From contig NC_086097.1 of assembly GCF_963921235.1 (NCBI RefSeq), positions 91,142,001 to 91,206,000 on the forward strand: a DNA stretch of 64,000 nucleotides. Direction: 5' to 3'. This document shows positions 41,074 through 63,419 of this stretch, one piece after another. The stretch's first letter is position 1, and each line of letters begins with the position of its first letter. The DNA comes from Mobula hypostoma (lineage: Eukaryota). Made by a program: the position numbers and the translations under genes. The notes under the pieces are model-generated. The model was not told where the DNA came from and did not search any database. It saw only the letters and a program-made list of their open reading frames with translations.

Positions 41074-42845
41074 AGATATGATGTTTTTCCTTCTTTGCAG
41101 ATATATCATAAATTATTCATGATTAAGGTTCTTTGAAACTTTGAATTGAAATGCAGTGTCTTCTTTTAGCTTTGAAGAACTAATTGGAACACTGGCTATT
41201 TCTGTATGACAAAACTCAGTTCAACAGTTCTACTATAAAAATGACTTTACTCTCACAGCCTACGAGCAAAGTCTTAAAGATCAAAATGACTACAGGAATC
41301 AATAACAGAAGGACATAAACAGGATCTTAGGACCGTCTGATTAAATTTTCCCTTCTGACAAAGGAGGCCTCATCTGTCCATTAACATTATTTTAAAGAAA
41401 AGCTATGGAGTTCTCTCCTGTGCCCTGGCTAATATTTATCTCGCAACTAAAGTCAGATGAATTCGCCGTGATCCCTGCTGCATGTGGGAGCTTTCTGTGC
41501 CTGAATCAACCACTATGATTCCTGTTTTACTGAATAATAATTCTTCTTTTAAAGTTCAAAGTAAAATCTATTATTAGAGCACATACATGTCACCACATAC
41601 AACCTTGAGATTCTTCTTCTGTTTATTCTCTTCCTCTTGAATCCACAAAGAATATCAAAATATCTTCTTGGGCTTTTACTGGCTTCAATTTTCCTTTCAA
41701 CTGAGCAGGGCCTGGCAGCAAACTCACCACAACCTCTCGGTGTGGTCTGCCTGGTGAAATACTACAAAAGGTTGTCCATGGTGTTCTTGTCAACTGCATG
41801 TTGACCTCTGGGAGGAAGAGAGTGGGCCAGTATCCCAGATAACCTTGAAATGCACACTTGCCCGCCCAAGTTCTATTAAAATTACCCTTCATCTTTAGGC
41901 ACACAATCCATTTTGCAGTTCTTGATCTTTTTAATAATGAGGATGTCCGGTCCACACCATGAGAATTATTTCAGGCAACCGGGGTCAACTTTAATCTATA
42001 TCTGTATTACAGAAGTTTCCTTAGTGTACCTCTTAAGGACAAGAATCAGCCCGAGTGAGCAGCAGAGAAACCGGATCTAACCACACTTCATTCACCTATA
42101 TTGCTGAGAGAAGTGTAGCCAGCCAATGAGAGGAGTAAAAAAAGATTTAAATGGAAGAACTGAAAACAAGAGACTTGCTTAATATGAAGTTGAAGGAATG
42201 ATATAAAGTGGAGCCATACTGACATGTGATAATTTGATTGGTGTCAGTCTGACAACATAACCACAGTGACCAGAGGTAATTTTACAATGCTGTGTTCCAC
42301 CCCCACCCCCACATAATTCCTGATTTGCAGAGACACAGACAATGTTGAGATACTGTGAACCAGAGAGAGTATTGTTCAAGTCTAGACTCTGATAATTGCA
42401 GGCCAGATGGCTAAGGAGATGATGGCAACCAGCAAGAATTTGGAAACGTCAAACAGCAGGTATATTGTAGAAAAAGAGATGATCTATAACCATATAGTTG
42501 GCTATAAAATTAAAACAATGTCTGAAAAGTTTACAAAGAAAGGACTCTCATGAAATGATCGATAGCAATAACTCTGGAGGCCAATAAGTGTAGCAGAAGA
42601 CCCCAAGTTTCTTTCTCTCAAAGAGGAACTTGCTATATCGAACTCCAGCCAGTTCACCCTGAGTGAGTTATACCTGAAAAGACTAAATCAGTTTTGGATG
42701 TTGTGAATCTGCTAAAGAAGTTGTCTAACCAAAGGGTTAATGATTTTTTGATTGTATAGCAAACCTTTGAGTTGTTTGAACTAATCACTATTAATAAAGA
42801 ATTAGAGCTAATAGGCAAAGTCATTGTGTGCTGGGTTTGTTGCAT

Positions 42846-43109
42846 TTTCCTTCTCTTCTTAAGCCCATCACCCCTACTGGGGCGTAGGCTACTGATAACT
42901 GCTCACCAGAATCATCTGTCCTGGGCCAGCCTTTCAAGTTGTTCTCAGGTGTAGCCCATCTTCAAAGGTCTTTCCCCTCTCAGGGATGAGGTCTTTAGAA
43001 ATTCTGTTGCCGTTTCTCTAGCACTGGGTTTTAACGGGATGGGGTTGCTAGACCGATGCCCAATCTTCCTCTTTTTGCACCCAGGCTTGGGATCGTCCAT
43101 GGCGGATTT
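42846..43109 (-). mobile_element. Short bipartite RTE-derived retroposon with a 5' twister-like ribozyme
   Basis: 3' part translates MGYT*EQLERLAQDR*FW (RTE ORF C-terminus), with an (aag)n-like tail; degenerate TSD ggtttgttgcat/ggtctgaagcat (9 of 12). Confidence 0.75.
43060..43109 (-). ncRNA. Degenerate type P1 twister ribozyme motif (3' cleavage-product side)
   Basis: Minus strand AAAUCCGCC-AUGGA-CGAUCCCAAGCCUGG-GUGCAAAA-AGAGGAAGAUUGG versus recalled twister pattern U^AACUCCGCC...CCGGUCCCAAGCCCGG...GGAGGAGGGUUGG. Confidence 0.65.
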
Positions 43110-43699
43110 GGTCTGAAGCATGCACCATTTAATTTGCTTAGGTTGGCATCAGAGATCAGTCCATGACTTCTTGGGAAGTGGCACCTAGTTCCTCACACGA
43201 AGGTAACAATTTGGTGTTGAAACATAGAGGGTGATAAAGAAGTAAGGTGATTTGGAATTACCAAGATACTGGTAACAATTTCAGGATGTCTTGCAGTGTG
43301 GGGGCTGCATGATTAGCCATCCCACAGAGCAAAGGGAGAAAAAAGAATCACAATTCCAATATAATGGTCCCACATAGAGAAAGGGTGATCTACACCTTTC
43401 ATAGAATTGATACATTCCGAAGTATATTACAGCCAATTTAAAAAGCTTTGAAGGGGGTCACTGTAAACAGCCAATTGGTTTGCCAACTCTCTGAGACAGG
43501 AATGAAATAAATGGTCACAGTATTGGTAGTTGAAGAATTAATATTGTCCAGAATATTGGGAAGAACTTGCTATTTTTTCTTCAAAACAGTCCCATGGAAT
43601 TACTAATATCCACCTGAAATTGCAGCAAAGACTTTGGTTTAATGTCAAAGAAGCTACTATCAAAGTGCAGCACCCCCTCATTACTGTATAGGGGTTCAT

Positions 43700-52447: not shown

Positions 52448-53719
52448 AACTGAAGGAAGAGTGAGTAAGGGATTTGAAAGCTGGAGGGGGAGGGGGAGAT
52501 GCAAAATGATAGGAGAAGACAGGAGGGGGAGGGATAGAGCCGAGAGCTGGACAGGTGATAGGCAAAAGGGGATACGAGAGGATCATGGGACAGGAGGCCT
52601 AGGGAGAAAGACGGGGGGGGGTGACCCAGAGGATGGGCAAGAGGTATATTCAGAGGGACAGAGGGAGAAAAAGGAGAGTGAGAGAAAGAATGTGTGCATA
52701 AAAAGGAGTAACAGCTGGGGTACGAGGGGGAGGTGGGGCCTAGCGGAAGTTAGAGAAGTCAATGTTCATGCCATCAGGTTGGAGGCTACCCAGACGGAAT
52801 ATAAGGTGTTGTTCCTCCAACCTGAGTGTGGCTTCATCTTTACAGTAGAGGAGGCCATGGATAGACATGTCAGAATGGGAATGGGCTGTGGAATTAAAAT
52901 GTGTGGCCACTGGGAGATCCTGCTTTCTCTGGCGGACATATCGTAGGAATCGCTCCCTACACAACTCCCTTGTCCATTCGTCCCCCCCATCCCTCCCCAC
53001 TGATCTCCCTCCTGGCACTTATCCGTGTAAGCGGAACAAGTGCTACACATGCCCTTACACTTCCTCCCTTACCACCATTCAGGGCCCCAAACAGTCCTTC
53101 CAGGTGAGGCAACACTTCACCTGTGAGTCGGCTGGGGTGATATACTGCATCCGGTGCTCCCGATGTGGCCTTTTATATATTGGCGAGACCCGACGCAGAC
53201 TGGGAGACCGCTTTGCTGAACATCTACGCTCTGTCCGCCAGAGAAAGCAGGATCTCCCAGTGGCCACACATTTTAATTCCATGTCCCATTCCCATTCTGA
53301 CATGTCTATCCACGGCCTCCTCTACTGTAAAGATGAAGCCACATCAGATTGGAGGAACAACACCTTATATTCCGTCTGGGTAGCCTCCAACCTGATGGCA
53401 TGAACATCGACTTCTCTAACTTCCGTTAAGGCCCCACCTCCCCCCGTACCCCATCTGTTACTTATTTTTATGCACACATTCTTTTTCTCACTCTCCTTTT
53501 TCTCCCTCTGTGCCTCTGAATATACCTCTGCCCATCATCGGGTGCCCCTCCCTTGTCTTTCTTCCCAGACCTCCTGTCCCATGATCCTCTCGTATCCCCT
53601 TTTGCCTATCACCTGTCCAGCTCTCGGCTCTATCCCTCCCCCTCCTGTCTTCTCCTATCATTTTGGATCTCCCCCTCCCCCTCCAACTTTCAAATCCCTT
53701 ACTCACTCTTCCTTCAGTT

Positions 53720-54992: not shown

Positions 54993-57900
54993 TGTTATGT
55001 TTTTTGTAACTTCAAAACATTTAACTATTTCAAAGGAAGAAGCATGAGGCCGAAATGTGTCTAACTTCATCTTTACTTTAACTGAGCCGTGTGATGCAGC
55101 ATGTAATTCACGTATTCAATCATAAGACCATAAGACAAAAGAGCAGAAGTCGGCCATTCGGCCCATCGAGTCTGCTCCGCCATTTTATCATGAGCTGATC
55201 CATTCTCCCATTTAGTCCCACTCCCCCGCCTTCTCACCATAACCTTTGATGCCCTGGCTACTCAGATACCTATTAATCTCTACCTTAAATACACCCAATG
55301 ACTTGGCCTCCACTGCTGCCCGTGGCAACAAATTCCACAGACTTACCACCTTCTGGCAAAAAAATTTCTTCGTATCTCTGTTCTGAATGGGCGCCCTTCA
55401 ATCCTTAAGTCATGCCCTCTCGTACTAGACTCCCCCATCATGGGCAACAACTTTGCCACTTTCACTCTGTCCATGCCTTTCAACATTCGAAATGTTTCTA
55501 TGAGGTTCCCTCTCATTCTTCTAAACTCCAAGAAATATAGTCCAAGAGTGGACAAACGTTCCTCATATGTTAACCCTCTCATTCCCGGAATCATTCTAGT
55601 GAATCTTCTCTGTACCCTTTCCAAAGTCAGCACATCCTTTCTTAAATAAGGAGACCAAAACTGCCCACAGTACTCCAAGTGAGGTCTCACCAGCGGCTTA
55701 TAGAGCCTCAACATCACATCCCTGCTCCTATACTCTATTCCTCTAGAAATGAATGCCAACATTGCATTCGCCTTCTTCACCACCAACTCAACCTGGAGGT
55801 TAACCTTAAGCATATCCTGTACGAGGACTCCCAAGTCCCGTTGCATCTCAGAACTTTGAATTCTCTCCCTATTTAAATAATAGTCTGCCGTTTATTTCTT
55901 CTGCCAAAGTGCATAACCATACACTTTCCAACATTGTATTTCATTTGCCACTTCTTTGCCCATTCTTGCAATCTATCCAAGTCTCTCTGCAGACTGTCCA
56001 TTTCCTCAGCACTACCGGCCCCTCCACCTATCTTTGTATCATCAGCAAACTTAGCCACAAAGCCATCTATTCCATAATCCAAATCGTTGATGTACAACGT
56101 AAAAAGAAGCGGCTCCAACACAGACCCCTATGGAATACCACTGGTAACTGGCAACCAACCAGAATAGGATCCCTTTATTCCCACTCTCTGTTTCCTGCCA
56201 ATCAGCCAATGCCCTATCCACGTATGTAACTTTCCCGTAATTCCATGGGCTCTTATCTTCTTAAGTAATCGCATGTGTGGCACCTCGTCAAAGGCCTTAT
56301 ATACAACATCCACTGCATCTCCCTTGTCTAGCCTACTTGTAATTTCCTCAAAAAATTGTAATAGGTTTGTCAGGCAGGATTTTCCTTCAAGGAAACCATG
56401 CTGAGTTCTGCCTATCTTGCCATATGCCTCCAGGTACTCTGTAACCTCATCCCCGACAATCGACTCCAACAACGTCCCAACCACCGATGTCAAGCTAACA
56501 GGTCTGTAATTTCCTTTTTGCTTCCTTGACCCCTTCTTAAATAGCGGAATGACATTTGCAATCTTCCAGTCCTCCAGAAACATGCCAGAGTCTATCAACT
56601 TTTGAAAGATCATCGCTAATGCCTCCGCAATCTCCACAGCTACTTCCTTCAGGACACGAGGGTGCATTCCATCTGGTCCGGGAAATTTATCTACCTTTAG
56701 ACTATTCAGCTTCCTGAGTACTTTCTCTGTCATAATTGTGACGGCGCACACTTCTCTTCCCTGTCACCCTTGAGTGTCGGTATACTGCTGATGTCTTCCT
56801 CAGTGAAGACTGATGCAGAATACTCGTTCAATTCCTCCGCCATCTCCTTATCTCCCATTACAATTTCTCCAGCATCATTTTCTATCAGTCCTATATCTAC
56901 TCTCACCTGTCTTTTACTCTTTATATACTTGAAATAGCTTTTAGTATCCTCTTTGATATTATTTGCTAGCTTCCTTTCATAGTTTATCTTTTCCCTCTTA
57001 ATGACCTTCTTAGTTTCCTTTTGGAAGCTTTTCAAAACTTCCCAATCCTCTGTCTTCCCACTAATTTTTGCTTCCTTGTATGCCCTCTCCTTTGCTTTAA
57101 CTTTGACTTTGACATCTCTTGTCAGCCACGGTTGCATCCTTTTACCATTCAAAAATGTCTTCTTTTTTGGAATATACCTGTCTTGCACCTTCCTCACTTC
57201 TCGCATAAACTCCAGCCACTGCTGCTCTGCCGTCCTTCCTCCCAGTGTCCCTTGCCAGTCATCTTTGGCCAGTTCCTCTCTCATGCCACTGTAATTTCCT
57301 TTACTCCACTGAAGTACCAACACATCGGATTTTGGCTTCTCTTTTTCAAATTTCACAGTGAACTCAGTCATGTTATGATCACTGCCTCCTAAGGGTTCCT
57401 TCATCTTAATCTCTCTAATCACGTCCGGTTCATTACACAATACCCAGTCCAGTACAGCCAATCCCCTAGTGGGCTCAACAACAAGCTGTTCTAAAAACCC
57501 ATCTCGCAGATATTCTACAAATTCTCTCTCTTCAGATCCAGAGCCGACCTGATTTTTCCAATCCACTCGCATGTTAAATTCCCCCACAATTATCATAACA
57601 CTGCCCTTCTGACAAGCCTTTCCTATTTCCTGCTGTAATTTGTAGTCCACATCACTGCAGCTGTTTGGAGGCCTGTATATAACTGCTATCAGGGTCCTTT
57701 TACCCCTGCAATTTCTTATCTCAACCCATAAAGTTTCTGCACCTTCCGATCCTATGTCACCTTTCTAATGATTTAATATCATTTCTTACCAATAAAGCCA
57801 CACCTCCCCCTCTGCCTACCTTCCTATCCTTCCGATACACCGTGTATCCTTGGACGTTCAGCTCCCAGAGACATGCATCCTTTAGCCACGTCTCAGTGAT

Positions 57901-58254: not shown

Positions 58255-58445
58255 TTTCAGGCCTAATGATTTAACTGCTGTGGAGGATTTCTTACTCATG
58301 TGGAATAAAGTCTTTCCTGACAAGGGGGATCACTTTGCTTGTCAGGTGAGACTCACAGTTGTGAAACAATTTCGGTGTCTGGGGCCCCCTGCGTGGTGAT
58401 TGCAGGAGTTGACTCTGAGACTGCAGAGAATGGTTCTGACAGCTT
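58255..58445 (-). pseudogene. Gypsy Pol C-terminal tail remnant
   Basis: LSEPFSAVSESTP...QERLYST*VRNPPQQLNH, resembling the RRYPxRxRxPPxRL end of Gypsy Pol; precedes the PPT. Confidence 0.65.
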
Positions 58446-59125
58446 TCTTCTCCTCTTCTCAGCTTTCTCTCTCTTTATCCCACTTTTTTCTTTCTCACAT
58501 TCCTTCTCTCTTTCATGCTCATCTTCTTTCTCTTTGTCTCTTCTTTTCAGCTTCTTGTACTTCCTTTTCTTCCTTCTCGGATGTGCATCTTGATCTTGGG
58601 AAGATGCATTTAGTTCACTGGAGTATTCTGTTATTAATCCTTCTACTGCTCCCTTTACCATCTGATCTCTCCTCTTGGTTTCCTCAGCCACAACAAAATC
58701 TGATGAATCCTCTGTTTCTGTGTCTCCATTGATTCCTTTCTTATTGGCCTTCCATTCATCCAGCTAGGCTTTGGCCTTTGCACCTAATTTTACAAGCAGC
58801 TTTTTATCTCTCATGTGATGTTCATGAAATAACCTTAAATCACACAGAGTAGATTCTGGTTCTTTATACTCACAAAAGTCAAATGCTTGCAACTTTCTTG
58901 AAGCTCCTTTATCTTTCCTCCAGTTTAAAACCATGCCAGAGTTTGCAAGAAATTTGCCGATTAACATATCAGAAGCTTTCTCAGGTATGTTGCCGATGAA
59001 AACAGTTGTAGTCAGACCACTGCTTTCATTACTTTCACAATTCCTCTGAGCAACATGGTCCTCCCTTGATCCAATATGCCAATATGCTTTCCAATCAGAG
59101 GCATAGAGGTTAGCAACAACAGACC
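58446..59125 (-). pseudogene. RBM25: Processed (intronless) RNA-binding protein 25 fragment: RRM and start of the Arg/Glu-rich region
   Basis: GKHIG.SREDH...GLTTTVFIGNIPEKASDMLIGKFLANSG...KLQAFDFCEYKEPESTL...KKLLVKLGAKAKA*LDEWKA...EETKRRDQMVKGAVEGLITEYSSELNA...HPRRKK matches recalled RBM25; one in-frame stop (58764-58766) and an 8-bp duplication ccaatatg (59071-59086). Confidence 0.92.
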
Positions 59126-59149
59126 ATGGTTCATGGTGAACAGCATGGA

Positions 59150-59480
59150 GACAGTTGCCGCATCATCCAGATACCTTTCTTAATTCCCTTTTAATTGACT
59201 CAATTAACAATTCAATGTGGCACGCAACTGATGGATAGATTTCCAATCATGTTGTAGCTGTCCCAGCCAATCATGGCTCTGCAATGCTGGTCCTCTAGTT
59301 TTTACCCCCTGCAAGCTCAATAGGTCCTTTTGGTTGCTGTATTTCACTGTTTCTCCAATATATGTTCTTAATTAGATATCTGCAGGCCTCACTTCAGCAC
59401 CTTTCAAATGCCATTCAACTCATTTTGTCGAATGACTTCCATTTTAATTAATTTGCTGTTCACTTCTGGTGTAAGCCATT
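59150..59480 (-). pseudogene. Gypsy aspartic protease remnant lacking the catalytic DTG
   Basis: WLTPEVNSKLIKME|VIRQ (expected LDTG absent) ... GPALQSHDWLGQLQHDW. Confidence 0.65.
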
Positions 59481-62156: not shown

Positions 62157-63231
62157 CATAGAAACATAGAAACATAGAAACATAGAAAATAGGTGCAGGA
62201 GTAGGCCATTCGGCCCTTCGAGCCTGCACCGCCATTTATTATGATCATGGCTGATCATCCAACTCAGAACCCAGCCTTCCCTCCATACCCCCTGACCCCT
62301 GTAGCCACAAGGGCCATATCTAACTTCCTTTTAAACATAGCTAATGAATTGGCCTCAACAGTTTGCTGTGGCAGAGAATTCCACAGATTCACCACTCTCT
62401 GTGTGAAGAAGTTTTTCCTAACCTCGGTCCTAAAAGGCTTCCCCTCTATCCTCAAACTGTGACCCCTCGTTCTAGACCTCCCCAACATCGGGAACAATCT
62501 TCCCGCATCTAGCCTGTCCAATCCCTTTAGGATCTTATACGTTTCAATCAGATCCCCCCTCAATCTTCTAAATTCCAACGAGTACAAGCCCAGTTCATCC
62601 AGTCTTTCTTCATATGAAAGACCTGCCATCCCAGGAATCAATCTGGTGAACCTGCTTTGTACTCCCTCTATGGCAAGGATGTCTTTCCTCAGATTAGGGG
62701 ACCAAAACTGCACACAATACTCCAGGTGTGGTCTCACCAAGGCCTTGTACAACTGCAGTAGTACCTCCCTGCTCCTGTACTCGAATCCTCTCGCTATAAA
62801 TGCCAGCATACCATTCGCCTTTTTCACCGCCTGCTGTACCTGCATGCCCACTTTCAATGACTGGTGTATAGTGACACCCAGGTCTCGTTGCACCTCCCCT
62901 TTTCCTAATCGGCCACCATTCAGATAATAATCTGTTTTCCTATTTTTGCCACCAAAGTGGATAACTTCACATTTATCCACATTAAATTGCATCTGCCATG
63001 AGTTTGCCCACTCACCCAACCTATCCAAGTCACCCTGCATCCTCTTAGCATCCTCCTCACTGCTAACACTGCCACCCAGCTTTGTGTCATCCGCAAACTT
63101 GGAGATGCTGCATTTAATTCCCTCATCCAAGTCATTAATATATATTGTAAACAACTGGGGTCCCAGCACTGAGCCTTGCGGTACCCCACTAGTCACTGCC
63201 TGCCATTCTGAAAAGGTCCCGTTTATTCCCA
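62157..63231 (-). mobile_element. Young 5'-truncated CR1 LINE with an uninterrupted RT C-terminal ORF
   Basis: ORF 62264-63286 VTSGVPQGSVLGPQLFTIYINDL...KFADDTKL...NLWNSLP; perfect (catagaaa)4 tail. Confidence 0.95.
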
Positions 63232-63419
63232 CATATATAAACATCATATATAAACATCCCAAATGTCCCCTTGTGTCCATAACCAATTTATATTAAATCT
63301 ATGCCAATTTGTAAAGTTGCAGTTGTCATCTTCAGTAATGAGTGAGGAGTACACAAGTGAGAATATTTCAAAGACTGGAGAACTAGTATGTGCAGGACAG
63401 GAGGCAGCTATTTAATCCA

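Follow-up and report, generated by a model that had tools for sequence, protein, structure and literature searches.

A short two-ended RTE-LINE derivative that begins at a predicted twister cleavage site in Mobula hypostoma

The element and its parent LINE

The 64,000-nucleotide stretch of Mobula hypostoma contig NC_086097.1 analyzed here (the window) contains, from 43109 to 42846 on the minus strand, a 264-base copy of a repeat of this 3.48-Gb genome. In this element, the first 145 and the last ~105 bases of an RTE-type LINE, recognized by their match to long copies in the same genome, are joined to one another; the 3' part covers the final 34 codons of the RTE ORF, with three stops, and is followed by an (AAG)n-like tail. 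A sequence-only reading had described a ~265-bp element composed of a twister-like motif, a UTR, the end of an RTE ORF and a tail, and each of these parts has been located, as follows.

43110..43121 (-): 5' target-site duplication (TSD), made of host DNA and ending in the base at twister position -1, here C
43064..43109 (-): twister core of type P1 without P3, nt 1-46; the first base of the element, A1, is at 43109
43058..43063 (-): 3' strand of P1, without a fixed partner (which would be host flank); from the Rfam alignment and the flank test
43039..43057 (-): small predicted hairpin 3' of the twister, from folding; similar sequence lies behind different heads in other RTE elements
42979..43012 (-): nt ~98-131, predicted to form the 5' UTR side of the 5'-3' long-range helix; from folding, co-folding and alignment folding
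42964..42965 (-): junction A1 of the internal deletion, where LINE nt 145 is followed directly by sequence from ~106 nt ahead of the end of the LINE; from junction mapping
42861..42962 (-): final 34 codons of the RTE ORF, with 3 stops
42890..42925 (-): nt ~185-220, predicted to form the 3' side of the long-range helix; this copy retains 18 of the 26 pairs of the consensus
42863..42889 (-): predicted terminal hairpin, from folding; likely the recognition site of the reverse transcriptase
42846..42860 (-): (AAG)n-like tail
42834..42845 (-): 3' TSD, paired with 43110-43121

Elsewhere in the window lie other retroelement fragments with GIY-YIG, endonuclease and reverse transcriptase domains, at 52849-53400 (+), 56733-57764 (-) and 62267-63292 (-). 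At 58356-59162 (-) there are two adjacent open frames that resemble a broken gene for an RNA-binding splicing factor and that have no Pfam match; these frames, which we take to be RBM25-like, are possibly a processed pseudogene.

The parent of the element was reached through a 42-aa query, which matched an RTE-like C-terminus and led from there to the 3' end of the parent and to 12 long, degraded copies that carry the same head as the element. These copies measure 2.5-5.4 kb where both ends could be located. The short consensus and the LINE consensus differ at 6 of 146 positions in the 5' part and at 2 of ~105 in the 3' part; thus, the proposed non-autonomous RTE derivative is borne out, with both ends matching long RTE copies and the ORF deleted. 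The homologues of the parent fragment are single-ORF proteins with APE and RT, found in snails, fishes and amphioxus at up to 61% identity, and the closest of them are ~1,000 aa long and contain PF03372/PF14529, PF00078 and PF20049. The parent copies align along the ORF of a sister family with the same domains, and the parent tail is (TAAC)n. We take a single APE and RT ORF together with a short tandem-repeat tail to mark the RTE clade. A degenerate pattern for the start of the parent ORF gave no matches. In one parent copy (L161:1123-1502), a 64-nt part of the head is tandemly repeated.

The top protein matches were considered as the parent and rejected, as they belong to the sister RTE family, which is younger and has a different head. 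Copies of this family (L101, L102, L104, L105, L106 and L108) are ~90% identical to one another, and one of them, L106, has an open frame of 1,018 aa. The family shares the block that follows the head, and its own 5' head is structured and has no Rfam match. A third RTE family (L269, L272, L277 and L279) has a third, longer 5' head, again with no Rfam match, and also exhibits 5'-3' pairing. RTE heads appear to be exchangeable upstream of a conserved block, in elements from outside this genome as well.

The twister head and the 5' end

An Rfam search of the window copy gave no twister match at E<=10. However, twister-P1 (RF03160) is matched at the equivalent place by 10 of the 20 sister loci searched, with 25-40 bits, and weakly by 3 of the 4 long copies that were tested. 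A search of the genome with twister-P1 found 9 places with 39-47 bits (best, 46.9 bits; best E, 3.7e-6), all of which are heads of short elements, and no place in any of 14 control genomes. None of the family's twister-P1 matches reaches the Rfam gathering score of 67.2. This is because P3 is missing: the P3 positions of the model are gaps in the Rfam alignments. (P3 is described as optional in twisters in PMC5408937.) In the family consensus, all 12 core pairs (P2, P4, T1 and T2) are Watson-Crick and the 7 core bases are present, together with an A.G mismatch at the base of P4. The cleavage-site residues A1 and A2 and the general-base G, positioned through the Rfam alignment, are kept both in the consensus and in the window copy. 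Consequently, the suggestion that the head would fit the twister-P1 model holds for the family, whose consensus has every core pair, but with scores below the gathering threshold and with the window copy itself unmatched.

Among 130 copies picked independently of Rfam, 13 (9 of 89 and 4 of 41) have no core defect. The window copy has five broken core pairs, in P2 (43107, 43072), P4 (43093) and T1 (43066, 43064). A high-throughput survey reports that pseudoknot defects lower twister cleavage (PMC11662667), and so, judging from its sequence, the ribozyme of the window copy is probably dead, as had been proposed from its mutations. The other ground that had been given for its inactivity, the missing 5' strand of P1, falls away. 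P1 is reported to be dispensable for the twister (PMC5408937; PMC11662667), so its lack is no defect, and the strand is absent in essentially all copies.

The head is shared almost unchanged (49-50 of 52 positions) by three RTE elements found on metagenome contigs; their proteins have only 43-57% identity, and a C-G/A-U change affects one P4 pair. The occurrence of twisters at the 5' ends of some RTE LINEs, on which the sequence-only reading relied, agrees with the literature: T-variant twisters of Perere-3, an element of the RTE clade in Schistosoma mansoni, cleave in vitro and adjoin TSDs (PMC8501958). In addition, a one-sentence remark marked "in preparation" mentions truncated, catalytically competent twisters at the 5' ends of RTE retrotransposons (PMC7761336), the same motif in the same place as here; no follow-up paper to the remark was found. 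A twister that includes P3 (54.4 bits) lies at the 5' end of another outside RTE element (L322:795-875).

It had also been proposed that the 5' ends of the family lie at the predicted cleavage site, and the end positions agree. Of 29 copies retrieved with a mid-body query, which does not select for the head, 20 align from base 1 onward, as do 22 of 30 retrieved with the whole element and 7 of 12 long LINE copies; the remaining 9 of 29 and 8 of 30 align only from further in. The TSD of the window copy (43110-43121 versus 42834-42845) matches at 9 of 12 positions, a score equalled in 4% of the flanks of 103 other copies and, with 10- and 14-base windows, in 13% and 9%. The degenerate TSD that was said to fix the 5' end is therefore real but weak when taken alone, and it is the family that carries the boundary. 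When TSDs were sought from positions -10 to -3 only (null, 2.4%), they were present in 31 of 104 copies. Of these 31, 26 have matching repeats at -1, 15 at +1 and 8 at +3, so that the family TSDs end one base ahead of the cleavage-site A. The base with which the target continues after the TSD is not A in 16 of the 31, so A1 is part of the element.

A T occupies position -1 in 75 of 137 copies (about 55%, versus a background of 30%). This T belongs to the TSD, as it is present in both repeats in 19 of the 21 copies that have the upstream T, and the next base of the target is a purine in 28 of the 31 copies with a TSD. With a T^purine target and the T within the TSD, insertion tends to rebuild the U^A step of the twister. 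It does not rebuild P1: the flanks form 0.68 of 4 possible Watson-Crick pairs with the P1 strand, compared with 1.01 at control offsets (137 copies), a value below every one of 120 such offsets. This depletion is most simply a side effect of the target preference. (The RTE target signature described in PMC6007223 lies at the start of the TSD, the opposite end from that examined here.)

The arrangement thus resembles Perere-3 as described in PMC8501958, in that a type-P1 twister lies at an RTE-type 5' end, the TSD adjoins the cleavage-site AA, and the 5' side of P1 is host DNA. Unlike Perere-3, the carriers here are mostly non-coding derivatives of ~250 nt, the twister has no P3, and the flanks are depleted, rather than enriched, for P1 pairing, while T^purine is preferred at the ribozyme end. 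The step of the Perere-3 model in which P1 comes from the TSD finds no support here.

An internal Pol II promoter, which would start the transcript at or near A1 and leave the twister as a mere inheritance from the LINE or as a device that trims occasional read-through, is an unlikely source of these 5' ends. Pol II transcription is what Kojima expects for bipartite LINEs (PMC5786205), and the conserved block behind the head, common to RTE elements with different heads, could be a promoter. However, the start coincides with the twister cleavage site to the base, distant RTE elements have kept the twister, and the authors of the Perere-3 work infer upstream host promoters for their element (PMC8501958).

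The predicted helix between the two ends

Folding of the short consensus places nt ~98-131 opposite nt ~185-220, with probabilities of 0.95-0.99 for 10 core pairs. Using narrow cognate windows in three families of this genome, the pairing gave p 0.025 for the parent LINE and p <0.005 for each of the other two; five of six non-cognate pairs of the same families were at chance, with the sixth at p 0.03. For the parent LINE, wide windows gave no significant pairing (p 0.83). A larger comparison of 24 RTE elements used windows anchored on sequence and protein motifs; 3 of 24 selected outside loci, which had no anchor, were left out, as were 8 further of 32 full-length loci, which were near-duplicates or had no usable end. 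In this set the mean co-folding energy was -12.2 kcal/mol for cognate and -6.0 kcal/mol for non-cognate windows, and 0 of 20,000 permutations was as good; the same result was obtained with the 21 outside elements alone. A control window shifted by 60 nt within the same element gave -5.4 kcal/mol. Four of the 24 elements have no cognate preference, placing mid-field or worse in their own row. Alignment folding of 10 families reveals double-sided changes in the outer helix. The inner helix gave 94/140 in its fixed register, compared with 31-67 in slid registers, and p 0.07 when partners were permuted among the 10 families.

These comparisons suggest a model that we hold to have an even chance of being right. 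In it, RTE elements of this lineage would pair a segment of the 5' UTR with the last codons of the ORF, ~3 kb away, regardless of which ribozyme heads the element, and the helix would be a recognition structure for retrotransposition, so that RTE parasites and RTE-mobilized SINEs must carry both ends. The twister-headed mini-element would then be the minimal ribozyme-plus-helix unit, and, with P1 unnecessary, each new insertion into a transcribed region could serve as a source copy. We regard the predicted helix as mattering more than the element itself. If true, it would offer a testable explanation of the bipartite structure that has long been noted in RTE-mobilized SINEs, and it would bear on the design of templates for RTE-based gene insertion, which employs cognate 5' and 3' UTRs (PMC13708176).

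Deletion junctions, propagation and relatives

A search with the window element gave 3,809 first-look candidates; all 40 that were scored match, with 78-83% identity excluding the element itself. In 30 fetched loci, divergence from the consensus is 10% outside CpG and 41% at CpG, indicating an old family that has decayed much like neutral DNA. An exact degenerate pattern of the head has 295 matches in the genome (the reversed control has none), and it is present in 7 of 59 copies retrieved by other queries; from this rate, the family is estimated at ~2,500 copies. One locus, L233, is a duplicate of L232 and was excluded before counting. Contigs of four sequencing runs, whose type was guessed, contain many diverged copies of the family, in which transcript starts and strand are not readable.

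Junctions were counted by hand over 89 head-selected copies. They could be mapped in 71, of which 20 belong to class A1, that of the window copy, 21 to A2 and 8 to B, with the other 22 rare or unique; 3 of the 89 have insertions, and 15 have no 3' end within 600 nt. Continuation into the LINE body was seen in none of the 89. Both strands of the predicted helix are kept by 66 of the 71 junctions, and the 5 that clip one strand are all singletons; the classes are not independent of one another, and a microhomology at junction B explains it without the helix. The tails of short copies are mostly (AAG)n or (TAAG)n.

Copies of the family thus share junctions while having distinct flanks and TSDs, as expected of a unit that propagates. 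The 22 rare or unique junctions would suit a collection of separate deletions of the full-length LINE, each made during or after insertion, with no propagating family at all; the three classes common to 49 of the 89 copies, with their distinct flanks, and tails that are mostly (AAG)n or (TAAG)n on short copies versus (TAAC)n on long ones render this highly improbable. That the element is a conventional Pol III SINE whose body derives from an RTE, for which the SINE-like size and copy number and a consensus sense strand free of four-T runs might speak, is already largely refuted, since A and B box patterns are absent from both consensus strands, a tRNA was called in 0 of 12 loci, no tRNA, 5S or 7SL appears among the Rfam matches of the window copy and sister loci, and the element takes its head from the 5' end of the LINE itself; the sequence-only reading had likewise proposed a family without a Pol III promoter.

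Beside the structure and parentage of the element, its recurrent junctions, the 5' ends at A1, the TSDs that end at -1 and the T^purine preference, all of which the sequences show, stands a reading that we consider quite probable: the locus is a decayed copy of a short two-ended RTE-LINE element that starts at a predicted twister cleavage site, and that was likely cut from host read-through transcripts and likely reinserted by the protein of the parent LINE. The cycle would begin when host Pol II reads through a copy of the family. The P1-independent twister core would then cut between the host base and A1, and the 5' UTR and the 3' part would pair into a long, interrupted helix, which together with the terminal hairpin would likely form the site recognized by the LINE protein. 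Target-primed reverse transcription would insert a new copy, with the flank supplying the -1 base, T in about 55%. Several variants with different deletions arose and became more numerous than the LINE, and the family has decayed since.

This element combines two published ideas, a twister on an RTE and ribozyme-headed, internally deleted elements. Like the R2 SIDEs of Drosophila (PMC3414825), it joins a ribozyme-bearing 5' end to a LINE 3' end by internal deletion and is, on the reading favored here, mobilized in trans. However, the SIDEs as described there have an HDV-like ribozyme, belong to the R2 clade, are site-specific for rDNA and are rare, whereas the present family has a twister, is of RTE type, is dispersed and numbers in the thousands. 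Like the bipartite RTE elements Bov-A, MAR4_MD, RTESINE1/2 and WALLSI3 (PMC5786205; PMC7245038), it consists of LINE 5' and 3' parts, has no ORF and keeps the 5' end of the LINE. A 5' ribozyme has been proposed as the reason that this end is kept, but the portions of these two papers available to us name neither a twister nor a pairing of the two parts. No paper describing a twister-headed non-autonomous RTE, or a pairing between the 5' and 3' ends of RTEs, came up in the literature search, although Repbase, Dfam or supplements may hold the family. The element carries modest weight as a clean, high-copy, vertebrate-scale case that tests the Perere-3 model.

Two of the family's loci (L207 and L208) have a common upstream flank, for which 5' transduction was considered and rejected; a distant block is also common to them, at 77%, which indicates an old local duplication. 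Another old local duplication that includes a family copy joins L260 and L261 (G000:C2), which lie ~470 kb apart and have rearranged flanks. Finally, a young LINE family (L262-L268) has copies of 4.2 kb that are 95-97% identical to one another, with a GC-rich 5' end and long open frames, and is only ~29% identical to the RTE protein.
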